A program made the position numbers and the translations under genes. The notes beneath the pieces are model-generated. The model was not told where the DNA came from, searched no databases, and saw only the letters and a list, made by a program, of their open reading frames with translations. DNA of 64,000 bases from Pseudomonas phage vB_PaeM_GXNNA8: sequence record PV400810.1; one strand, written 5' to 3'. Positions 37,324-63,772 of this stretch are shown here, piece by piece (positions within the stretch are counted from its first letter, which is position 1; each line of letters begins with the position of its first letter).

Positions 37324-38826
37324 ATGATAGAAGCGTTACTCTTTACATCGACCGCGAATGCCTTTCCGGACGATCCTTATCCGGGGCCTTCTAAATTGAA
37401 AGCGGGTAGTCTTGCCCAAGGATGGTACGGGATCACTCCTGCAACGGAATTGTTTGGTTACGAGGATTTAGCGAAACTCACTGGGATTGCCTTTGGTAAA
37501 GTGATCAATGAAGGCAAACCGTGGTTGAAGTTTTCGAACCACAATGAAACCTGTTACATTCCTCAAATGCCGATCCGGAATAATGTTCGGCGTATTCTGT
37601 TGACCCAAGCCGGTCTACGGACAGGGAGCTATGAGCTCCGGTACCGAGGGGTTATTTACACCGTGGGTCTCTTGACCATGGGGAGTGATGGCAATACAGC
37701 AACGTCTGAATGGGACCGGTTGTTGTATAACGTCCATGTATCAGATCCCAATGGATTCAACTGGCCCACTCGGTTCACGGATGCAGAACTGGGGATGAAT
37801 CAAGCGGCCAGCGGGGGTAATACTAACGGGAATACCAACTGGGGTAAAGACATTACGGGTAATGAACCCGGTACCACTCAAGCGTATCGGGGGTGGTACA
37901 CCATTAGGAATGTCACGTACTCTGCCAGTGATTCTGAAGTCCCTACCCAGGGATGGCGACCTATTCTGTATGCCAAGGGGACGTACCCGTTTATTGAAGG
38001 TCAGAGTGAAGCGATGGTTAACTGGCCGGGTTCATTGTTATTCAATACCGGACGGGGATGTGTCCATGGAAACCATATCTACTACTACGGTGGGGTAGAG
38101 ACCGCTACCAAAGAGTTCCGTCGGGTTAACTTTGAAACCCGGGTACTTGAAACCCTGAGTCCAACAGGGCCTACCAATCCCCCCCGGAAGAACTCCATCC
38201 TGGTTTCTGATGGTAAGGATGTTCTTTACTTCCTAGGAGGCGCTGCGAATGATGCGTACGGGTATAATCCCACTACGAACATCGTCACCCGTTTACCCAA
38301 TATGCCCCTGACTCCGCTGACAGGTGGAGCGGTTTATCTCAATGGGAAGGTGTACATCTGCGGGGTACAGTCAGGAACCCCCACCACGAATAAAGGCTTC
38401 TTGATTGCGTACGATCCTGTTGCCAATACCCACACCGTCCTTAAGGCCTTCGCTGAGAGTGGAGATTGTTCTGACTTTACGGTAATGGTTTATCAAGGGA
38501 AGGTGAGTGTTATTGGTGGGGTAGTGGCGGGGGCGAACAACCCTGGGATGTACCAGTATAACCCGGCTACGAACACCTGGACAACGGTGACTCTTCCTGG
38601 TATCCCAGTTGGTGCAGCCTTTGTGCTGGGGAATAATGGGGAACTCTACGCGATTGCGGGGAGTGTTAATGATCAACCAATTCAGTATTTTGAACCTCGG
38701 TTGAACAAGTGGGTGCTATTGGGAAGTTTGGGCTCGGGTGTTGCTACGAGTGCGTGGGGGGTGAACTACAACCAAGCCCTCTACCTCTTTGGCGGTTCCC
38801 AAGGGTATCGGATTAAAATCACGTAA
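37324..38826 (+). CDS. Kelch-repeat beta-propeller protein (500 aa), probable receptor-binding/tail-associated
   Basis: Repeated YxxGG motifs typical of Kelch blades (GKVYICGV, GKVSVIGGV, GELYAIAGS, ALYLFGGS). Confidence 0.6.
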   Translation: MIEALLFTSTANAFPDDPYPGPSKLKAGSLAQGWYGITPATELFGYEDLAKLTGIAFGKVINEGKPWLKFSNHNETCYIPQMPIRNNVRRILLTQAGLRTGSYELRYRGVIYTVGLLTMGSDGNTATSEWDRLLYNVHVSDPNGFNWPTRFTDAELGMNQAASGGNTNGNTNWGKDITGNEPGTTQAYRGWYTIRNVTYSASDSEVPTQGWRPILYAKGTYPFIEGQSEAMVNWPGSLLFNTGRGCVHGNHIYYYGGVETATKEFRRVNFETRVLETLSPTGPTNPPRKNSILVSDGKDVLYFLGGAANDAYGYNPTTNIVTRLPNMPLTPLTGGAVYLNGKVYICGVQSGTPTTNKGFLIAYDPVANTHTVLKAFAESGDCSDFTVMVYQGKVSVIGGVVAGANNPGMYQYNPATNTWTTVTLPGIPVGAAFVLGNNGELYAIAGSVNDQPIQYFEPRLNKWVLLGSLGSGVATSAWGVNYNQALYLFGGSQGYRIKIT

Positions 38827-52980: not shown

Positions 52981-53038
52981 GAGGTGTTACTCCTTTGGGT
53001 TAAACAATGATCGTGTCGCTCATTCATATGAATAATGT

Positions 53039-53059
53039 AGGTTTGAGAATAAATACGTT
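53039..53059 (-). promoter_or_regulatory. Promoter-like motif GAATAATGTAGGTTTGAGAAT, 59 bp upstream of gene 52576-52980
   Basis: Family member. Confidence 0.5.
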
Positions 53060-54808: not shown

Positions 54809-55558
54809 TTAACTGAGTTTAATCATGAAAGATCCGTTTTCTCCATCGACTTCGTAGCTGACATCAAAGACCTTGTTACCGTCTTTGTCATTTACAACCG
54901 ACAGGGTCTTTTTCATCAGGGGGATGAACGCTTCAGGTTGTTCCGGGTATTGGAACACGTCCTTCCAAGCGGGTGGGTTCCTCTCCTGAACCGGGAAGAA
55001 CGAAGAGAGAGGGAGAGGGTACACAGAACCACACACCGCATTCGAAGAGATATCCGAATGTTGCAAGGGTATCTCCTTGCCCAGACCATGTAGGATAAAT
55101 TTATCCCCATCGAGATCCGAGCGGACCATCGAACCGAGCAACACATGCGTGGGGATTTCGAACCGAGCACCAATCAACACCCGACCGTCGTCATACACGA
55201 AGCTTTTGAACACAAGTTTGATGAACCCGTAGATCGTAAAAACCCCGGGTTGTAGGGAAAGCTGCTTTAATCCGGGTTTACCGATGTTACTCCATATCAC
55301 CTTGCACTGGTCGAATTCCAACTGCTTACCGACCCACTCGGCATCACCAAACTGAGTGACGTACTCAACCAGAGCCTTCTGTGTACGGGTCAGTATGGTG
55401 TTGGCCAGCGCACCTCTGGTACTCCAGAACTTTACAGCGGAAATGAGGCGTTCTTTCGAATTGTAGGACACGGCACTTTTCCTTTCAGGGGTTTGGAGTG
55501 AGAGCGAATAAAATCGCCCTCGGGTTACGGAATAACAGCGACAGAGACCTCCCTCCAT
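54809..55558 (-). CDS. Hypothetical protein (249 aa)
   Basis: ORF. Terminator at 54762-54795 lies 3' of it. Confidence 0.55.
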   Translation of the reverse strand: MEGGLCRCYSVTRGRFYSLSLQTPERKSAVSYNSKERLISAVKFWSTRGALANTILTRTQKALVEYVTQFGDAEWVGKQLEFDQCKVIWSNIGKPGLKQLSLQPGVFTIYGFIKLVFKSFVYDDGRVLIGARFEIPTHVLLGSMVRSDLDGDKFILHGLGKEIPLQHSDISSNAVCGSVYPLPLSSFFPVQERNPPAWKDVFQYPEQPEAFIPLMKKTLSVVNDKDGNKVFDVSYEVDGENGSFMIKLS

Positions 55559-55577
55559 CGCTGTTATTCCGTATCGA

Positions 55578-56792
55578 TTAGAACATGGCGGTTATCGTGG
55601 CCAGAATGCCCTGGGGTTGAGAAACCGGTTCCGGTTGTGCCGTGACCTGCTCCCGAACGGAAACCGTCGCTACGGGCTCGCCTTGGGGCTGCTGAGGACC
55701 GAAGCCCAGAAGGCCTTGAGTGGTACGTCCGAGGTTGGAACCCGCCCCACCCAGGATCAGACCGATCGAACCACTCACGATGTAACGACCCGGTTCGCTC
55801 TTCATGAGGCCTTCTGCTTTCTCAGCCGCGAAGTAACCGGCCGCCGCACCCAGCCCCGTACCCACAACCGAACCGATGCTCACATTCCCACGTGATGCCA
55901 TTTCGACACCGCCGCCGATGATCGCCGCAGCAGCCGCCACCGCGCCGGAACCGAAGCCTTCTTCACGACCGCCCCGGAGGGTGTAGACAACACGTTCCTT
56001 GAAGGTACCCGGCGCTTGCCGTTGGGCTTTAGCCGCATCACGGCGCGCCTTTTCAGCTTCCACACCGGTGGCGTTGATGTCTTTTACCGCCTTGCTGTAT
56101 TGATTGATGAACTCCTGGCTGAGTTCGGGGTGGTCGTCCAGGAAGGCACGGAGCGCACCCGCCGGGGACGAGTGGTCTTGACTCTTGACGAGCTCTTCCA
56201 GTTCGGTCTTCAGGTGAGTCGGGAGACCGCCGTTGATCAGCCAGGCGTCGATAGTGTAGGACAGGATGTTGTCGGCCTTGAAGGTCACCCCCAGTACCTC
56301 GACGACCTCGTCGCTGTCATTGCTGTCGGACCAGCTGGAAGCCCCCGCCTGTTCTTCATAGGCGGCGCGGGCACCTTGGGATCGTTCCAGGAGTTGTTGG
56401 GCGAGCGGTTGGTTTTCTTCTTTCATGGTGTTCTCCAGGTGGGTCATTGCATCAGTTTCAGTGGGGGTTGCCGGAACAGCCTCTGCCTGCGAGGCCTGTT
56501 CATTCACTTCACCCATCACACGGACGGGAATGTCAACTTGCCCGGACAGTTTATCCGTTACGATCAACTTCTCCGGTTTCTTACCGGCGTGACGAACGTC
56601 GTTCATCGTAAACCGGGAACGAGTCGCCTCGTTGATCTTCTTCAGCGCAGACGGACGCTTTGCTTTATTGAAACGCGTCTCGTCGAAGAGGTGGTGGTAG
56701 ATGATCGACAGGATCTCCTCACGGTCTGTCTTTTCACCGATGTCACTCAAGACATTCGCCAGGGCGGCATTGAAGTCAGTAGTCACGCTCAT
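55578..56792 (-). CDS. Hypothetical protein (404 aa) with C-terminal glycine-zipper/membrane-like domain; GC-rich
   Basis: C-terminal GSGAVAAAAAIIGGGVEMASRGNVSIGSVVGTGLGAAAGYFAAE...GSIGLILGGAGSNLG (GxxxG/glycine-zipper-like). Local GC is about 65% against a genome background of about 50%. Promoter motif 73 bp upstream. Confidence 0.6.
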   Translation of the reverse strand: MSVTTDFNAALANVLSDIGEKTDREEILSIIYHHLFDETRFNKAKRPSALKKINEATRSRFTMNDVRHAGKKPEKLIVTDKLSGQVDIPVRVMGEVNEQASQAEAVPATPTETDAMTHLENTMKEENQPLAQQLLERSQGARAAYEEQAGASSWSDSNDSDEVVEVLGVTFKADNILSYTIDAWLINGGLPTHLKTELEELVKSQDHSSPAGALRAFLDDHPELSQEFINQYSKAVKDINATGVEAEKARRDAAKAQRQAPGTFKERVVYTLRGGREEGFGSGAVAAAAAIIGGGVEMASRGNVSIGSVVGTGLGAAAGYFAAEKAEGLMKSEPGRYIVSGSIGLILGGAGSNLGRTTQGLLGFGPQQPQGEPVATVSVREQVTAQPEPVSQPQGILATITAMF

Positions 56793-56864
56793 CTTGATAA
56801 CCCTTTTCTGTCTTTAGAAGGGAAAGTCACTTACCTGCAAACAATCCCGTTGTCTATTCACCTT

Positions 56865-56885
56865 GGTAATGTAGGTTTGTTTCAT
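56865..56885 (-). promoter_or_regulatory. Promoter-like motif GGTAATGTAGGTTTGTTTCAT, 73 bp upstream of gene 55578-56792
   Basis: Family member. Confidence 0.5.
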
Positions 56886-56914
56886 TCCTTAACTTAATTT
56901 TTTACTCCCTTAAA

Positions 56915-56946
56915 CCTACCCCTACCCTGTCAAGGGTAGGGGTAGT
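56915..56946 (-). terminator. Terminator 3' of the 2H phosphoesterase gene
   Basis: CCTACCCCTACCCT-GTCAA-GGGTAGGGGTAG. Confidence 0.6.
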
Positions 56947-56954
56947 ATAGGGTC

Positions 56955-57380
56955 TTATTTGGTTCCGAACGATTCTTTACTGAAGGTGAGTTGTCGACCA
57001 CCCCAGGTTGCAAACGCTTGCTTCACTTTCAGCATGTCGTATTCATCGAAGTCATAGGTGACGGACATGTGCGGTAAGAAGCTATCAAAGGAATGGATAT
57101 ACCCACCGTCTTTCAACCTACGGTGTTCATCAGCGAGGTCTTTGCTGGTAAGGTTAAACACCAATCCATCTCCCAGTACATCAATCCCTGTCACGTAGGC
57201 AGTGAATTCCGCGTCAGGATTCAGTTTTACCAGCGGTTCTTCTGCCCGTTCATCGTACATCAGGGTACAATGCAGGTTATACTCCGCAGCTGGTGCAATA
57301 CCACACTCCAAGAGCAAGCCAAAGATTTCCTCTACTTCAGGTCCTACCAAGGACACATCCACATACCCGTAATTATTCAT
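56955..57380 (-). CDS. 2H phosphoesterase (LigT/Acb1-like), 141 aa
   Basis: Two H-x-[TS]-x motifs each preceded by hydrophobics: NLHCTLMYD (H46) and LPHMSVTYD (H103). Size and spacing resemble the small phage 2H enzymes (T4 Acb1 is 152 aa). Confidence 0.65.
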   Translation of the reverse strand: MNNYGYVDVSLVGPEVEEIFGLLLECGIAPAAEYNLHCTLMYDERAEEPLVKLNPDAEFTAYVTGIDVLGDGLVFNLTSKDLADEHRRLKDGGYIHSFDSFLPHMSVTYDFDEYDMLKVKQAFATWGGRQLTFSKESFGTK

Positions 57381-57420
57381 TCCACTTATCCCGAAAAAAA
57401 ATAGAGAGAACAGGGTGGTT

Positions 57421-57448
57421 AGCTTGTATACTAACCACCCCCCATCAA
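57421..57448 (-). terminator. Terminator 3' of the DHH phosphoesterase gene
   Basis: GGGTGGTTAG-CTTGTATACT-AACCACCC. Confidence 0.5.
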
Positions 57449-57628
57449 ATGGAATACCTGTTAGTTACGTAAACATTGAGTAACCGTAACTGTTTTAATC
57501 ACCTTCCGATTCTCCAAATATCGGATAGACTTCATAAGTCGATGGTCGTCCACGCGAGTCACTAAGTCACCAATAAAAACGGATTTACCTATCAGGTCAA
57601 TGATTAAGAACAGTGCGTGAGTGCCCAT

Positions 57629-58882
57629 TTAAGTACCGGAATACAGTGACAGGTGTGACTGGGAGAAACGGGGATCGTCGTAGGAGAGTGAAAACCCTGC
57701 TGCGTTAGGATGACCGCCTCCTCCAAAACGTTCAGCCACTTCCGCTAGATTCACTTTATCCTTACCCCGTAGAGAGAAGATACGGCTATCCTTACCATCC
57801 ATGTAAGTGACTACAAAGTCAATACCGTCTCGACCCTTCAGTTTATCCCCTACATCACTGGCGTGGAAATAACTGGCATTAACAATCAAGCAGTTGTAAC
57901 CCTCCAACGTGTAAGGCCGCGCACTCGGGAGTAGTTTTTCAACATCCAATTCCTGCTTACGAAGGACGGTACGACCTTCTTCTACCACGTCTTGGTAATC
58001 CCGATGAATCAGTTTATCGAAACTCTCAACGGTGAGGGGATACCCAAAGGCGGCCGCGGTCCATTCCTTACTGCCTTCGTACTCCCATTTCCACAGATCC
58101 CGATCTTGTACTGCCAGAATGCCCGGAGGCGTCGGTTGTTGAGGGTGGAAGTAGTCGTACGACAACTTAGCGCCTGAACGTGTCATATCGATGATAATCT
58201 CAACCCGATCACCCCGCGTTGATTTCCCGGAATAACCAACGACGAGTTCACCCAGTTCCCGTTGAGCACTCTCGTGATGATCCAAGATCAGCAAGCCTGT
58301 ATCCGGTAAATTAGCAATCGCTTCTACAACTGCTTTCTTAAAACTGAAATCAACACAATAGACCATTCTCCCTTGTAGATACTCCAATCCCGAACCAAAA
58401 AGTTCGTACGGATCATCATGATAGCTCATAGCCACCAATTCAACCAAGGGGAGTGCACTTCTTACCGCCCAAGCTGCCGCAGTACCATCCAGACAGTTCT
58501 TATGATAGATGCACACCGGTGCATTCGATAGGAAGGACACCCCGTCAGCCGTATAACGGCGATCCTCCACCCAATAAAATTCTCCAGCTGACGGTCCATT
58601 TACGCTGTAGCAAAGCGTGAGTTGCAGTTGTTTACCGGGATGTTCCTTGACCGCCTTAATAAAGGCCAACTGGAGTTTAATATCCGCTTCCTTTCTTTGT
58701 TCTTCCTGGATAAGCTGTTCAAACACACGGTCAGCACCCTCTCTGAAATAATCAGGATCGGTATATCCTACGACTTCGGGTCGTCCTGTCTTTTGATTCG
58801 CAGTAATACCGAAGAGGAACTGTTTACCCCCATCTTCTACTACTGATACATCAATAAAGCTTTTCATAGTGTTAATCTCCAC
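57629..58882 (-). CDS. DHH/DHHA1 family phosphoesterase (NrnA/RecJ-like) with a roughly 115-aa N-terminal extension
   Basis: DHH motif I CIYHKNCLDGTAAAW, motif II VYCVDFS, motif III LLILDHHE. DHHA1 motif FGGGGHPNAAGFS. Confidence 0.8.
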   Translation of the reverse strand: MEINTMKSFIDVSVVEDGGKQFLFGITANQKTGRPEVVGYTDPDYFREGADRVFEQLIQEEQRKEADIKLQLAFIKAVKEHPGKQLQLTLCYSVNGPSAGEFYWVEDRRYTADGVSFLSNAPVCIYHKNCLDGTAAAWAVRSALPLVELVAMSYHDDPYELFGSGLEYLQGRMVYCVDFSFKKAVVEAIANLPDTGLLILDHHESAQRELGELVVGYSGKSTRGDRVEIIIDMTRSGAKLSYDYFHPQQPTPPGILAVQDRDLWKWEYEGSKEWTAAAFGYPLTVESFDKLIHRDYQDVVEEGRTVLRKQELDVEKLLPSARPYTLEGYNCLIVNASYFHASDVGDKLKGRDGIDFVVTYMDGKDSRIFSLRGKDKVNLAEVAERFGGGGHPNAAGFSLSYDDPRFSQSHLSLYSGT

Positions 58883-58892
58883 GGTTGATTGA

Positions 58893-59384
58893 TCAGAACC
58901 CTAAGACTTTCATGTATTCCATATCGTGGGCTTCCGGATTATTGGCAGCATCCTTGGCTAATTGGTCTGCCTTTTCATTACCTTCATCCCCTGAGTGACC
59001 TTTAACCCAATGGAACTTTACCTTATTCTTCTTCAAGAGTTCATTGAGGACTTCCAACAGATCCCGGTTCTTAACCGGTTGTCCGGAGTTATACCCCATC
59101 CAGTTGTTCCGTATCCATCCTCTCATCCATTTAGTAGCGCATTTAATGACGTATTGGGAGTCCGTGAAGATGTCCACTTTGATATTAGGACCAAACTCTT
59201 CCAGCGCTGCAATCACACTCATGAGTTCCTGGCGGTTGTTAGTGGTTTTGTAATACCCTTTACTCAGGGAGAATTCCTCCCCTTTGTATTTAGCGTAAAC
59301 ACCGTAACCGCCCGGACCTGGATTCCCTAACGCACTCCCATCGGTATAAATGACATATCGGTCATTCCTCTTTGTTTTGGACAT
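58893..59384 (-). CDS. rnhA: Ribonuclease HI
   Basis: YTDGSALGNPGPGGYGVY...TTNNRQELMSVIAALE...IFTDSQYV...HWVKGHSGDEGNEKADQLA is collinear with E. coli RNase HI (TDGSCLGNPGPGGYG...TTNNRMEL...STDSQYV...WVKGHAGHPENERCDELA). Confidence 0.95.
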   Translation of the reverse strand: MSKTKRNDRYVIYTDGSALGNPGPGGYGVYAKYKGEEFSLSKGYYKTTNNRQELMSVIAALEEFGPNIKVDIFTDSQYVIKCATKWMRGWIRNNWMGYNSGQPVKNRDLLEVLNELLKKNKVKFHWVKGHSGDEGNEKADQLAKDAANNPEAHDMEYMKVLGF

Positions 59385-59423
59385 TCGTTAACCTCCCTTT
59401 TACAAGTAAGTAGACAATTAAAC

Positions 59424-59455
59424 CCTTACTCTCCAGGTAATCCTGGAGAGTAAGG
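59424..59455 (-). terminator. Terminator 3' of gene 59465-60772, just upstream of rnhA
   Basis: CCTTACTCTCCAGG-TAAT-CCTGGAGAGTAAGG. Confidence 0.6.
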
Positions 59456-59464
59456 TACTGCGTA

Positions 59465-60772
59465 TTAACAATACGGGAGGGACTCTGGATCCTCGAAATC
59501 TGATGTGATACTACGGTTAACAGCCATCACATCGTCCATCAACTTGATGATCTTCATCCGAGAAATCACCGACTTCAGGACATAATTCAAGATGCTCTTG
59601 AAGAGGAGTCCGTCTTCAGAGATCTCGTTATTGACCATCGGGGTTTTTATCAAGAGTTCACCCAGTTTTTCACTGAGTTCTTCCCAAGTTACGTCGCTCC
59701 CCAGTTCAAGGCCGGACGAACCACCCGAGCGGATGGAGATTACATACTGTGTTTTTGAGGTGCGGTGCAGAATAAGATTTTGAGGATGGAACGGAAGTTC
59801 GATCTCCGTAAGACCCAGTTTATTAGGCGCGTAGAGTGACCTCATGTAAAGCGTCTTATTCCGGAGGGTGAAGTTGCGAAGGATCAGCGTTTCAGAAACG
59901 CTCAAGTAACAACCATGAAGGTAAGCTTTCGAGAGAGACAGCATGGATGCGGTGAGGGTGGTGGTGGTAAGATGCGATTTAACGATGGCAAACTTCCCAG
60001 CGGTAATGTGGGTACGATCCACATACGACTCTTTCACTAAGCCCTTGCCATTGATGGGAGAATCTTTAATCTCGGATTCGATGAAACGGCAGTCGTTGTA
60101 CCGAGCACGTTGATCAACCCCTCGTTTAAATACATCCGCTCTTTTTGGGAAGTCGATCAGTTCGTCGATTGGTCGCAATTCGGTCGATCGTGTACGAGCG
60201 ACACTGCTCTTGTTAACCACACAGTCGTTAACCTCGACATTCAGAAGGTAATTCTCCCCTTCAAACTCACAACGATTAACCACCGAGTTGACTACCACAG
60301 CACTCCCCTTACGCTTACTGACGTTAAGGAAAGGAACGTCAGTAGGGGTTTCCAGCGTAACTTCAGAATAGGAGTCGACCAAGAGATCAAGTTCAACACC
60401 GTAAAGAGTCGTCTTGAAATGAGAGAAGAGGTCGATTTCCGCGGTTACACCTACTGACCAGTATTTATTCCCAAGAATTTCACGTCCTTCTTTGGAACGG
60501 ATCCATTCGCCGTACGGCTTGGTATCGAGAGCCACCAGTTCCTTACCGTCAACCACCACCTTGGGCTTAGAAGGCTCAGGAGCGGAACGGTGTTCTTTAT
60601 TCTCGGTGGGTTGGGTAATGGATTTCTTATCCGACTGTTCCTTGTCGTGTTTCATCTTCTTACCCAGTTCCTTGGAGTGTTTCAAAGCCTTCTCGGCCTT
60701 CTTGAGTTTCATTGCTACTACCGGGTCAGTGGTAGTGTGTTGTTGGTCGTAGGTGTCGGTTTTAACGGTCAT
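59465..60772 (-). CDS. Hypothetical protein (435 aa), translationally coupled to ligase
   Basis: 4-nt overlap with the ligA stop. Basic K/E-rich N-terminus. No recognisable motif. Confidence 0.6.
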   Translation of the reverse strand: MTVKTDTYDQQHTTTDPVVAMKLKKAEKALKHSKELGKKMKHDKEQSDKKSITQPTENKEHRSAPEPSKPKVVVDGKELVALDTKPYGEWIRSKEGREILGNKYWSVGVTAEIDLFSHFKTTLYGVELDLLVDSYSEVTLETPTDVPFLNVSKRKGSAVVVNSVVNRCEFEGENYLLNVEVNDCVVNKSSVARTRSTELRPIDELIDFPKRADVFKRGVDQRARYNDCRFIESEIKDSPINGKGLVKESYVDRTHITAGKFAIVKSHLTTTTLTASMLSLSKAYLHGCYLSVSETLILRNFTLRNKTLYMRSLYAPNKLGLTEIELPFHPQNLILHRTSKTQYVISIRSGGSSGLELGSDVTWEELSEKLGELLIKTPMVNNEISEDGLLFKSILNYVLKSVISRMKIIKLMDDVMAVNRSITSDFEDPESLPYC

Positions 60773-62754
60773 TCTCGGTGTCCTTTAATGAACTGAATGA
60801 GGGAGTCGATGCTCGAGTAATCCTTTGCAATTAGCATAGGTATACCCGATTCGGTTGCAATTAACAGTTTCGATTTACCAGGACGATCACCCACAATGAC
60901 GAAGGCACAGTCCTGAGTAAGCCGATCACTGAGTTCAATCCCTTCCTTAGCGAACAGGTTACAGAGTTCTCCTCGGGAAGGTCCAATGTTGCCGGTAATA
61001 CAGACTTTAATGCAGTCGTCCTGCGTTCCGGTGTACTGGAGAGTCAACATCCCTTTTAGGGCGTGGAAGTTGTCCTTAAAGACCGGGGAGTCGAACGCGT
61101 TCACGACCCGATAAGCAATCCCCACTGAAACCCCTCGTACACTTTGTAGGAACTTAGGATTGGTAAGGGATTCTTCGATCTTCCCTTCAGGGATGGCGTT
61201 TGCCAGGCGTTTAGCCAAGGTGATCCCAATATCCGGGATACCCAACGCCTTTAAGAAGCGGTGTAAAGGAACGGGTTCCTGAAGAACACGCTCCAAACCT
61301 CTTCGAGTCGTCGGGGTAAGACATTGATCCTTAATGTCTTCAGGAAGGGCAAGTATATCAGCCGGTTGTTTAACCCATCCTTTCTCAACCAATTCACTGA
61401 CCTTAACGGGCCCTAAACCGTCTACATCCAGTCCAAACTTATCGAACGTCGTTACGCACCGCATAACAATCTGCGCAGGGCACTCTGCGACGTTGTTACA
61501 GACGAGTTCGGAACTGTCCCTACCTACCACTACCTCTAGGAGAGAATCGCATAGGAGAGAATCGCAGCTAGGGCAGTTCGTAGGCGCTTCTAGAAGGTCT
61601 CCTTCCCCACACTCCTCCACCCGGTTCAACCGAGGGATCACATCGTTGTTCCGGGTAATAACAATCCGGTCACCGATTGATAACCCTAAGTCCATAAACG
61701 AACCGTAGTTATCCAACGACGCACACTGACAGATAACTCCTTGGATTGTTACGGGGGTAAACTGGACCACTGGAACTACCCGGCCAAACCGAGAGGTTTT
61801 CCAGATACAGCCTTCAACCTGGGTTAACGCTTCTTCCGCAGGGAACTTGTAAGCAATAGCCCAGTGAGGGAATTTACTCCCATTTCCACTGGCGTCTTGT
61901 TCCTTGAACTTGTCGACTTTAATCACAATCCCGTCCACCGGACGAATGTTCCCCCTCCGGTTCTCTGAGATTGCAATCCAATCCCTAGATTCAGGAACAC
62001 CAAACCCTAAACCTAAGAGAACCTGTCTCAATTCGGAGTAGGCTTTCGTCCCCAATCGATCACTGGCGTAATACGCCGCGAAGTACAGCGTTCCTCGGAT
62101 ATCCTCCCGTTGGTTCTGAGGGAGGGACCGCACCCACCCACTCACGGCATTACGGGGATTGGACCGTTTACCCCCTGTTTCATTAAGAGAATTAAAGCGT
62201 TCCAGACTGATATACCCTTCACCCCGAATAACCAATCGATCCCCCTGGGGTTTATGACGGTCAGGAAGCGTCCTTAAGGTACGAGGAAGGGTGACTTCAT
62301 CAAAGAGGACTATGGAATGTGTCACATCTTCCCCGACTAATCCAGATCCCCGGGTACTCATACTGACCAGTTGTCCCTGTTCATACACCAGCTCCAGGGC
62401 CAACCCATCCAGTTTCTCTTCGTAAAAGAAGTTTGTACCATCCGGGAACTTCAACAGGAACGCGTCCGCTTCCTCCACACTCAAGGCTTTCTTCAAGCTG
62501 AGCATGGGTTCCTCGAACCGTACGGGTCGAATGGCTTCCCCAGAGGGTTCATGAATAGGAACGGGTCGATTATAGAAATCGAACTTAGCCGCTATTTCAG
62601 GGTATCGGTCGTACAACTCATTGAGTTCTTGCTCCAACGCGTCATACGCTTCATCAGAGATCTCATTCCGGTTCTCGACGAAATAGAGATGGGCGTGATA
62701 CGTCAGTTGTTCATGGAGGTATTTAATCCGTTCAACAGGTGAGTGTTTACCCAT
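60769..62754 (-). CDS. ligA: NAD-dependent DNA ligase
   Basis: 661 aa. N-terminal RIKYLHEQLTYHAHLYFVENRNEISDEAYDALEQEL (adenylation domain Ia). KLDGLALELVYE contains the KxDG active-site lysine. Cys4 zinc finger CPSC...C.....CPAQ. C-terminal HhH/BRCT-like region. Confidence 0.9.
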   Translation of the reverse strand: MGKHSPVERIKYLHEQLTYHAHLYFVENRNEISDEAYDALEQELNELYDRYPEIAAKFDFYNRPVPIHEPSGEAIRPVRFEEPMLSLKKALSVEEADAFLLKFPDGTNFFYEEKLDGLALELVYEQGQLVSMSTRGSGLVGEDVTHSIVLFDEVTLPRTLRTLPDRHKPQGDRLVIRGEGYISLERFNSLNETGGKRSNPRNAVSGWVRSLPQNQREDIRGTLYFAAYYASDRLGTKAYSELRQVLLGLGFGVPESRDWIAISENRRGNIRPVDGIVIKVDKFKEQDASGNGSKFPHWAIAYKFPAEEALTQVEGCIWKTSRFGRVVPVVQFTPVTIQGVICQCASLDNYGSFMDLGLSIGDRIVITRNNDVIPRLNRVEECGEGDLLEAPTNCPSCDSLLCDSLLEVVVGRDSSELVCNNVAECPAQIVMRCVTTFDKFGLDVDGLGPVKVSELVEKGWVKQPADILALPEDIKDQCLTPTTRRGLERVLQEPVPLHRFLKALGIPDIGITLAKRLANAIPEGKIEESLTNPKFLQSVRGVSVGIAYRVVNAFDSPVFKDNFHALKGMLTLQYTGTQDDCIKVCITGNIGPSRGELCNLFAKEGIELSDRLTQDCAFVIVGDRPGKSKLLIATESGIPMLIAKDYSSIDSLIQFIKGHRE

Positions 62755-62822: not shown

Positions 62823-63317
62823 TTAAGCCCTGACTTTGTGTTCTTCCTTTAGCAACGCATTCAAGAAACAGATGTCGCTGTAATCCTGTTTACGACGGAG
62901 TCCTCGTTCAGGGCGACTGTAACTCCCGCGTTTCTGAATCAACAGTGACATCGCATCAAAGATGTAGACTTCAGGACATTGATCCAGCTTAACAGGAACG
63001 GTGGGGAAATAGAGGTTACGTTTACGCACCCAGTAATGGCGGCGTGTGGTGACGTGACCGGTTTGATCCATGGAATCAATAGTCGTTTCAATATGGAACA
63101 CATTGTCTCTCATAGGGCTGAGAATAGCGTTCTGGGTTTCAGCAATGCGTTCAAAGAACGGACTGTCCACCCAAATGTTCAAATCATAGGTGGTTTCACG
63201 ACCCCCCATGAGCATGATAGCCCCACCCCCACCAATAGCGATCTTATCCAATGGGGTGTTATGAGTCTCAGAGAACTGTTGAACGGCTTTTACCACTTCC
63301 AATTGACTATAAAACAT
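62823..63317 (-). CDS. Minimal nucleotidyltransferase-fold protein (164 aa), paralog of the next gene
   Basis: IAIGGGGAIMLMGGRETTYDLNIWVD fits the Pol-beta-type pattern hG[GS]-x(9-13)-Dh[DE]h with the second acidic residue replaced by N (possibly degenerate). Confidence 0.55.
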   Translation of the reverse strand: MFYSQLEVVKAVQQFSETHNTPLDKIAIGGGGAIMLMGGRETTYDLNIWVDSPFFERIAETQNAILSPMRDNVFHIETTIDSMDQTGHVTTRRHYWVRKRNLYFPTVPVKLDQCPEVYIFDAMSLLIQKRGSYSRPERGLRRKQDYSDICFLNALLKEEHKVRA

Positions 63318-63331
63318 ACCGTAACCTGACC

Positions 63332-63772
63332 TTACAACAATGCGCGTGCGGTGAATGGTTGAGACTGAGTGAGAATTTCCAGTTGGCGGATATCACGGTG
63401 ATCCTGTTGGGTCTTAACGTCCGTTCGATCAGCCAGCTTCGTGAGCCAGTGTTTCTGATTCAGTAACTCCGTAGGGCTGTACAACCACACCCCCTCAATA
63501 CAAACCACCCCTGTGTTCTCGTCGTATTCATGGAGATCGACCAGGGGGGTGTATTGAACCCGTTTATTCACGGTTTCGTTCTCGATAACCCCGAACTTAT
63601 TACTCGCCCAGTTGAACACACTGGTAGGGACATCCACATCGAGGTTATTTGTTTCCTCTCGGATCCCCATTACCACCAAGGCGGCACCCGCCGACAGGAT
63701 CACCTGATGCGGCGGGAGGGCGAGGTCTTCGACCAGTTCACGATACCGTTCTATCACTTCAGCTTTGTTCAT
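63332..63772 (-). CDS. Minimal nucleotidyltransferase-fold protein (146 aa)
   Basis: ILSAGAALVVMGIREETNNLDVDV is a canonical GS...DhDh NTase motif. Similar to the 164-aa neighbour over the motif region. Confidence 0.55.
   Translation of the reverse strand: MNKAEVIERYRELVEDLALPPHQVILSAGAALVVMGIREETNNLDVDVPTSVFNWASNKFGVIENETVNKRVQYTPLVDLHEYDENTGVVCIEGVWLYSPTELLNQKHWLTKLADRTDVKTQQDHRDIRQLEILTQSQPFTARALL

Follow-up and report, generated by a model that had tools for sequence, protein, structure and literature searches.

Acb1-family and DHH-DHHA1 phosphoesterase genes in one block of an Elvirus genome: two known kinds of enzyme and a pairing that comparison does not support

Described relatives of the two enzymes

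The closest described relatives of the two proteins considered here fall into two families: Acb1, a compact phosphodiesterase of the 2H superfamily and of phage origin, known from T4 (gp57B), phage FBB1 (PDB 7t26/7t27) and Burkholderia phage BCSR5 (the phosphodiesterase 9q2g/9q2y), and the DHH phosphoesterases with a two-domain DHH plus DHHA1 plan, namely NrnA, NrnB/COG2404, Rv2837c (CdnP) of Mycobacterium tuberculosis, TmPDE of Thermotoga maritima, Borrelia DhhP and the catalytic domain of GdpP. Genes for one protein of each kind lie near one another in a 64,000-nucleotide stretch of Pseudomonas phage vB_PaeM_GXNNA8 (PV400810.1), referred to as the window. A first-pass annotation of this DNA had proposed them as a unit, a two-step sink for immune messengers. 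Both proteins are of known kinds that already carry fitting labels: UniRef names the one Acb1, and RefSeq and PHROGs call the other a DHH phosphoesterase. The pairing has no earlier description, and as a functional entity it is not supported; sequence comparisons likewise fail to support the idea that Acb1 and the DHH protein form a functional pair. Because a coupled two-enzyme module is unsupported by the comparative data, it would be wrong to present the finding as a new system. The reading favoured here, with moderate confidence, is that of an Acb1 and a housekeeping nanoRNase acting independently inside one conserved block.

Viral relatives of the DHH protein have recently come into view. 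A July 2026 bioRxiv preprint (10.64898/2026.07.21.739742) describes viral DHH phosphodiesterase clades that span kingdoms, and reports that mimivirus R106 ('Euk-DHH-1B') and one phage enzyme ('Ph-DHH-3B') block signalling by 3'3'-cyclic GMP-AMP (3'3'-cGAMP). Purified R106 degraded this messenger and many other nucleotide messengers, and an R106 knockout in an amoeba host showed no replication defect or fitness disadvantage. Among the phage DHH proteins screened in the same study there was a single positive, the catalytic mutant of which behaved non-specifically. The main text of the preprint makes no mention of gp125, the ortholog of the window protein in Pseudomonas phage EL. The viral enzymes have the fold predicted for the EL DHH protein, occur likewise in large DNA viruses and, in groups 4 and 5, are described with an ordered interdomain helix like the one in its model; the likeness lies at the level of the modelled fold, and similarity assigns neither a group nor cGAMP activity to EL gp125.

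The window phage is an Elvirus, a member of the jumbo phage genus of EL type; EL itself (NC_007623) and seven further EL-like records are 97% identical to window region 55500-60800. All genes mapped in the block under discussion, from a DNA ligase gene to a gp127-like gene, are on the minus strand. The features that concern the two enzymes directly are these:

57629-58882, minus strand: DHH protein, gp125 in EL, 417 amino acids (aa) from a GTG start
58529..58882, minus strand: N-terminal extension of the DHH protein, ~115 aa, Elvirus only
57629..58528, minus strand: DHH-DHHA1 catalytic core, aa ~119-417 of the 417-aa open reading frame (ORF)
57461-57628, minus strand: 55-aa candidate ORF that begins right after the DHH stop codon, with no annotation in EL
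57393..57441 (hairpin 57412-57441), minus strand: terminator-like hairpin plus T-run, separating the DHH gene and the 55-aa ORF from Acb1
56955-57380, minus strand: 2H protein of the Acb1 family, 141 aa, gp126 in EL, named 'RNA ligase' in RefSeq

The two reading frames first called, of 141 and 417 aa, are confirmed. The DHH gene had been placed immediately upstream of the 2H gene; it is near and on the same strand, but the 248-bp gap between them contains the 55-aa ORF and the hairpin, which has a 12-bp stem followed by a T-run. The 55-aa ORF is intact in EL (three non-synonymous and one synonymous codon differences), is annotated only in vB_PQ1, and gave no family match in NCBIfam, PADLOC and Pfam scans. 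NCBIfam and PADLOC also returned zero matches for the 2H protein, the DHH protein or their neighbours.

Family membership of the 2H and DHH proteins

Sequence and predicted fold together make a convincing case for assigning the 141-aa protein to the Acb1 family of 2H phosphodiesterases. Its catalytic motifs are H37-C-T39 (LHCTL) and H104-M-S106 (PHMSV); the first-pass annotation had recognised both H-x-T/S motifs, which are real and invariant, but had numbered their histidines 46 and 103. H37, T39, H104 and S106 are all invariant among 20 close homologs, and over 40 diverse homologs H37 and H104 are the sole invariant columns. The motifs stand 67 residues apart, and known Acb1 members, of ~140-165 aa, have theirs ~67-70 residues apart, so that the Acb1-like size and spacing first remarked upon are borne out. 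The Pfam Acb1 model, PF23474, scores 42 bits (E 9.6e-11; gathering cut-off 27), with precomputed matches to the same model in 19/19 homologs, and PHROG 755 matches at E 7.8e-27. An Acb1-family profile searched against the PDB recovers 9q2g (E 6e-17) and 7t26 (E 1e-15), with both His motifs of the window protein aligned to those of the two structures. In Foldseek searches with the AlphaFold2 (AF2) model, for which the predicted local distance difference test (pLDDT) is 91.6, PDB ranks 1-5 are all phage Acb1 structures (9q2y, 9q2g and 7t26/7t27; E 1.8e-7 to 3e-5, query TM-score (TMq) 0.55-0.72), and a plant CPDase comes after them. These results uphold the Acb1-type assignment, and the UniRef name of the EL ortholog, 'Anti-CBASS protein Acb1', agrees with it.

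The substrate and phenotype suggested for the 141-aa protein come by homology, across a considerable distance. Identity to the solved Acb1 members is just 15-20%, the second motif is H-M-S as against H-x-T in known Acb1, and the C-terminal substrate-contact region does not align to that of 7t26. The protein belongs to a jumbo-phage subfamily (EL, RisingSun, OBP, pTD1 and GAP32-like phages) whose function is predicted, and the literature searched held no published data on EL gp126. Matches to alphaRep/HEAT-repeat entries of the PDB, obtained in a single-sequence phmmer search in which Acb1 reached only E 1.2, were dismissed as spurious products of a 'DERAEEPL' stretch; the family profile settled the matter.

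The first-pass annotation had also offered an alternative: the genes could make up a module for replication or RNA repair, with the 2H protein as a LigT-type RNA 2',3'-cyclic phosphodiesterase/ligase and the DHH protein as a RecJ-like single-stranded DNA exonuclease. The 'RNA ligase' label that RefSeq and PHROG give the 2H protein speaks for this, as do the 'single-stranded-DNA-specific exonuclease' labels of some DHH homologs and the position of both genes after those for an NAD-dependent ligase and RNase HI. The Pfam model of LigT type (2_5_RNA_ligase2, PF13563), however, scores 19.8 bits, under its cut-off of 27, and Escherichia coli LigT (5ldm) appears at Foldseek rank 26 (E 1.6e-2, TMq 0.47), so that Acb1 wins clearly. 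The 2'-5' RNA ligase family has only the 2H superfamily in common with the window protein, its structures falling far under those of Acb1, and the sequence and model comparisons largely refute a LigT identity.

Acb1-like domains also turn up in connection with structural annotations. The Acb1-family profile matches the C-terminal part of the portal protein of cyanophage Pam3 (PDB 8hds_A residues 482-593, E 7.9e-6), and a tblastn match of the family lies beneath a 'portal protein' coding sequence at 37476-37844 of Vibrio phage vB_VpM-PP270; an Acb1-like 2H domain may therefore be fused to the portal in some phages. The jumbo-phage Acb1 homologs of RisingSun (gp120), CBB, XbC2 and YerA41 are labelled 'structural protein'. 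For RisingSun gp120 the virion packaging that this label would imply is unsupported, as the protein occurs 0 times in the RisingSun mass-spectrometry paper.

The DHH protein is supported, on its conserved motifs and its model, as a stand-alone NrnA/NrnB-like DHH-DHHA1 phosphoesterase rather than a bacterial RecJ. Translation probably begins at the ATG at 58867, giving the 412 aa annotated in EL, and not at the GTG at 58882; a Shine-Dalgarno-like GGAG stands 9 nt before this ATG and overlaps the GTG. The motif set first described (YHKNCLDG, D, DHH and GGGH) is present and conserved in 54 homologs, although motif I is not canonical. Invariant among these homologs are H127, C130, D132 and G133 of YHKNCLDG (aa 126-133), D178 of motif II, D201-H202-H203 of motif III, D260/D262 of motif IV and GGGGH at 387-391. 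Motif I thus reads H-x-x-C-x-D-G, with Cys (C130, codon 58493-58495) standing in 54/54 homologs where the canonical DxD has its first Asp, a substitution that may give this phage and giant-virus family a different metal chemistry. The DHHA1 model of Pfam scores above its cut-off (32.6 bits, 25.9) and the DHH model below (15.1 bits, 28.1), membership holding at the fold level, and PHROG 4771 'DHH phosphoesterase' matches across aa 106-414 at E 2e-97. Homologs at E<=1e-5 number 599; they are mostly 270-330 aa long, covering the C-terminal ~63-72% of the query, and several carry the Joint Genome Institute label 'oligoribonuclease NrnB/cAMP/cGMP phosphodiesterase'.

In the AF2 model the core, from about residue 121 to 417, is predicted with pLDDT >90 and consists of ~295 aa in two domains only, with a long ordered interdomain helix at aa 296-320. 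The N-terminal ~115 aa are modelled at pLDDT 45-67 and have no similarity among the ORFs of related loci. A fusion of this extension with the 93-aa ORF that precedes the DHH gene in relatives was considered and rejected, as BLAST and phmmer found no similarity between the two.

The best PDB folds for the core (Foldseek E 3e-12 to 1e-10; 4ls9, 5xsi, 9r7o, 8iu7, 5cet/5jju and 5o25) are Mycobacterium smegmatis NrnA, the GdpP catalytic domain, Borrelia DhhP, Staphylococcus aureus NrnA/Pde2, Rv2837c (CdnP) and TmPDE, which together with the Pfam DHHA1 match sustains the nanoRNase or dinucleotide-phosphodiesterase architecture originally read from the motifs. Archaeal RecJ2 and Cdc45-like proteins appear from rank 17 downwards, behind the NrnA-type enzymes, none of the top 50 PDB matches is a bacterial RecJ, and the Deinococcus radiodurans 'RecJ-like' match, 8ioo, is a 338-aa protein of NrnA type. 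RecJ shares the DHH superfamily with the window protein, from which its OB-fold and extra domains are missing. With the two-domain core thus standing closer to NrnA than to any RecJ, and with LigT under the Pfam cut-off, the LigT plus RecJ module is not supported as originally stated, and we regard it as very improbable. The structural comparison that the first-pass annotation had called for accordingly places the 2H protein nearest Acb1 and the DHH protein nearest NrnA/GdpP; the outcome it had set against its own proposal, matches limited to RecJ and LigT, did not arise.

The kinship with NrnA-type enzymes extends to the DHH triad, the aspartates of motifs II and IV and GGGH, at 12-20% identity; the window protein differs from them in its motif I Cys, its long interdomain helix and its Elvirus-only N-terminal ~115 aa. 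Characterised enzymes resemble it in sequence at the DHH and GGGH regions only, and because the similarity is so confined, its substrate specificity is unreadable from sequence. In BFVD the best matches of the core are DHH proteins of giant viruses (Marseillevirus, Lausannevirus, Klosneuvirus, Hokovirus and Pithovirus) and of jumbo phages (PhiEaH1, PaBG, ME3 and RP12), with target TM-scores (TMt) of up to 0.82; mimivirus R106 is not among the listed structural matches. Two orthologs are unevenly recorded: that of IR-QUMS-PaBa1-GHS-2021 (OP599913.1 51687-52937) is mislabelled 'methyltransferase', and that of vB_PQ1 (PQ516283.1 171967-173222) is broken into several coding sequences, probably by assembly frameshifts.

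Distribution, synteny and transcription signals

How often the two families meet was assessed in 80 IMG/VR loci that encode the DHH family, each with up to 10 kb of flank, in which Acb1 ORFs were sought with a hidden Markov model built from ~150 diverse Acb1-family sequences. An Acb1 ORF lies within 10 kb of the DHH gene in 3/80 loci (L013, L014 and L015), all of them EL-like jumbo contigs >225 kb in length; outside the EL-like clade the count is 0/77. Most of these 77 loci are early regions of temperate phages, where the neighbours include an integrase, a cI-like repressor, C5 DNA methylase, DUF2303, DUF5131, SNF2, a deoxynucleoside monophosphate kinase and an HD-motif protein without a Pfam match. 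The Acb1-to-DHH direction was covered by tblastn lists. In GenBank the DHH family is found in phiCbK-like, Brevundimonas, Vibrio H20-like, Moabite-like and other phages, and the Acb1 subfamily in RisingSun, GAP32-like, pTD1-like, OBP and other phages; among the matches listed, which make up about three quarters of each set, only 8 EL-like records have both. Across the 80 IMG/VR loci and these GenBank matches, no independent recurrent co-localisation of Acb1 and DHH in unrelated phages was found. Genes of nucleotide or nucleic-acid metabolism are recurrent DHH neighbours, as in Serratia phage Moabite (L012 3534-6900), where the DHH homolog follows the DNA ligase gene at a distance of one small gene, and in phiCbK (L011 4525-7035), where it stands two genes after an HD-domain/PDEase-like protein. 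Pfam gave nothing significant for the Moabite ORF upstream of DHH.

Within the EL-like clade the two genes belong to a common backbone. The remaining features of the block in the window are the following:

60769-62754, minus strand: NAD-dependent DNA ligase, gp122 in EL, with Pfam and PHROG matches; start of the backbone
59465-60772, minus strand: hypothetical protein of 435 aa, gp123 in EL
58893-59384, minus strand: RNase HI, gp124 in EL (Pfam RNase_H E 1.2e-45)
56916..56945, minus strand: 13-bp hairpin directly 3' of the Acb1 stop codon
56867..56878, minus strand: promoter-like motif AAACCTACATTA, upstream of the gp127-like gene
55578-56792, minus strand: gp127-like hypothetical protein of 404 aa (PHROG 29858, E 3e-5)

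EL-like metagenomic contigs share the order ligase, gp123, RNase H, variable small ORFs, Acb1 and gp127, observed in L003, L006-L009, L013 and L015. The DHH gene comes and goes within this backbone:

L005, L006/L014, L007, L013, L015: DHH present, with 1-4 unrelated small ORFs (0.6-1.3 kb) between DHH and Acb1
L008/L009: DHH absent, Acb1 and backbone kept
Erwinia phage RisingSun: DHH absent, Acb1 and backbone kept

Acb1 is retained in every EL-like relative examined and in RisingSun. Because relatives that have no DHH gene keep Acb1, the latter appears to be a stable clade gene and DHH an accessory gene in a variable cassette. Pfam returned nothing significant for the cassette ORFs of the relatives, and neither tight adjacency nor joint presence and absence of Acb1 and DHH is kept among the EL-like relatives. 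The gene that does stay beside Acb1 is gp127, orthologs of which follow it directly in all EL-like contigs examined (by BLAST, L005-L008, L013 and L015); RisingSun has a weak homolog (E 1e-3) one gene further on. Adjacency of Acb1 to gp127 is, in other words, better conserved than that of DHH to Acb1. The gp127-like protein is hydrophobic and rich in Gly/Ala in its C-terminal third.

Signals in the intergenic DNA divide the block further. The hairpin at 57412-57441 (minus strand) has a folding energy of -21.7 kcal/mol (z -4.3), which 0/200 shuffles equalled in stability, and that at 56916-56945 (minus strand), between Acb1 and gp127, reaches -31.3 kcal/mol (z -4.85). With a third at 59424-59455, between gp123 and RNase H, three gaps carry very stable hairpins on the minus strand (z -4.3 to -5.3), and a clear T-run follows just the one at 57412-57441. 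Acb1 is flanked on both sides by stable hairpins, therefore, and the upstream one resembles an intrinsic terminator; all three may be terminators or elements of RNA processing or stability. The spacing from RNase HI to the DHH gene is 10-25 bp, with no hairpin in the gap.

The motif AAACCTACATTA at 56867-56878 and 53033-53044 (minus strand) is identical to the two sequences that the EL record annotates as 'putative phage promoter', and with one mismatch or fewer it has 5 matches in the window against 0.32 expected. None lies between 56878 and 64000, hence none between ligase and Acb1, so that the copy at 56867-56878 delimits a block running from beyond the window end to Acb1. The genes from ligase to Acb1 may be a single promoter-to-promoter block with internal attenuators. 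A sigma-70 promoter scan gave 1 match against 5.3 expected.

It is against this background that the sequential sink has to be judged, in which Acb1 linearises cyclic messengers, the DHH nanoRNase degrades the linear products and the two genes form a functional unit. In each of six EL-like lineages (EL, L005, L006/L014, L007, L013 and L015) the DHH gene shares its strand with Acb1 and precedes it by 0.25-1.3 kb, and no promoter motif separates the two. All of these co-occurrences, however, trace to a single evolutionary event, because they fall in one clade and on one backbone, and the 77 loci elsewhere contribute 0 independent associations. Unrelated small ORFs and a terminator-like hairpin stand between the genes, and two related lineages have Acb1 and lack DHH. 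The chemistry fits poorly as well: Acb1 yields GpAp, with 5'-OH and 3'-phosphate ends, as opposed to the 5'-phosphorylated substrates typical of NrnA-type enzymes, and linearisation by Acb1 alone should, by homology, end signalling, leaving the second step with no obvious selective need. We consider the sequential sink unlikely. The two-gene unit put forward in the first-pass annotation thus gains no support from comparison: 77/80 DHH loci have no Acb1 within 10 kb, 1-4 ORFs intervene in relatives, and the hairpin lies in between.

Independent or coupled action

Under the favoured reading of independent enzymes, Acb1 alone would linearise the cyclic oligonucleotides of the cyclic-oligonucleotide-based antiphage signalling system (CBASS) and so silence its effectors. 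By homology, its His-x-Thr/Ser tetrad would carry out metal-independent acid-base catalysis, in which the 2'-OH of adenosine attacks a 3'-5' linkage in cyclic oligonucleotides, 3'3'-cGAMP and cyclic triadenylate (cA3) among them. The metal-dependent DHH enzyme would hydrolyse short 5'-phosphorylated oligo- and di-ribonucleotides to nucleoside monophosphates, its substrates probably being products of the adjacent RNase HI and of RNA turnover during infection; a side activity on cyclic dinucleotides is conceivable. NrnA-type DHH enzymes typically take 5'-phosphorylated short RNAs, and RNase HI yields such products. Because of this preference Acb1 products are likely to be poor canonical substrates and RNase H products fit, which makes it plausible that RNase H and a DHH nanoRNase are linked; the occurrence of the DHH clade in giant eukaryotic viruses is counted alongside this link to nucleic-acid metabolism. 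The near-adjacency of DHH and Acb1 in EL would then reflect inherited synteny with a shrunken intervening cassette.

Retention of Acb1 has a selective rationale of its own, since in Pseudomonas aeruginosa CBASS III-C is a strong barrier to a nucleus-forming phage of phiKZ-like type. Nucleus-forming jumbo phages evade DNA-targeting defences, and signalling systems (CBASS and type III CRISPR) are still a threat to them. EL is presumably of this type, a placement based on what is generally known of EL and on the annotation of OBP; a search of the window for the nuclear-shell protein chimallin with OBP_057 as query found none. Acb1 retention across the relatives examined in the EL and RisingSun lineage fits the weakness of such phages toward signalling defences, and makes the gene a candidate for tests in P. 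aeruginosa.

Several observations weigh against the favoured reading. Because no promoter motif lies inside the block, the genes from ligase to Acb1 may share one transcript by read-through. Adjacency of RNase H and DHH is not conserved in relatives. The DHH gene is an accessory one, present or absent in close relatives and carried in a variable cassette beside an anti-defence gene, a pattern typical of counter-defence genes. By analogy, the blocking of cGAMP signals reported for mimivirus and phage DHH phosphodiesterases (10.64898/2026.07.21.739742) makes an immune role for the EL enzyme conceivable, and with Cys for the first Asp of motif I its metal use and substrate may differ from those of NrnA.

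Much the same evidence bears on a further possibility, that the DHH protein is an immune-signal phosphodiesterase working in parallel with Acb1 rather than at a step after it. More kinds of messenger would then be destroyed, for example c-di-GMP, c-di-AMP, 3'3'-cGAMP or cyclic oligoadenylates, by cleavage to products with 5'-phosphates. Beyond the reported activity of R106 and one phage enzyme (10.64898/2026.07.21.739742), this proposal draws on the structural proximity of the EL core to giant-virus DHH proteins, with a helix like that of preprint groups 4 and 5, and on its PDB neighbours, which include the c-di-AMP phosphodiesterases GdpP and DhhP and the cGAMP phosphodiesterase CdnP. The DHH gene, moreover, comes and goes among close relatives in a cassette beside Acb1, and in temperate phages it sits in an early accessory region near DNA methylases. 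Set against these points are the screen of the same preprint (10.64898/2026.07.21.739742), in which one phage DHH protein scored, with a non-specific catalytic mutant, and its mimivirus knockout, which replicated in the amoeba host with neither defect nor fitness disadvantage. The family is found, too, in hundreds of phage loci with no further signal-degrading gene nearby, and its likeness to characterised enzymes consists of generic DHH and GGGH motifs from which no specificity can be read. On balance a parallel immune role appears possible but doubtful.

More speculative, and rather improbable, is a broader form of cooperation, in which the DHH and Acb1 enzymes of EL-like nucleus-forming jumbo phages would act together as a cytoplasmic messenger sink, sequentially or with complementary spectra, and would make up a counter-signalling island with the small ORFs between them. 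In its sequential version the DHH enzyme could clear the linear products of Acb1 by a 3'-phosphatase or 5'-OH-tolerant nuclease activity that the Cys motif I enables. Were this so, the island would protect a phage whose protein shell already shields it against DNA-targeting defences.

With independent action of Acb1 and a nanoRNase as the preferred account, the locus keeps its interest for the DHH family. The clade, which jumbo phages have in common with giant eukaryotic viruses, may consist of housekeeping nanoRNases or of messenger phosphodiesterases, and EL offers a tractable locus, in which a member of the viral DHH clade lies between RNase H and a member of the jumbo-phage Acb1 subfamily. 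Beyond the block, tandem paralogues at 62823-63317 and 63332-63772 both match PHROG 12854, a family of unknown function (E 3e-45 and 4e-46).

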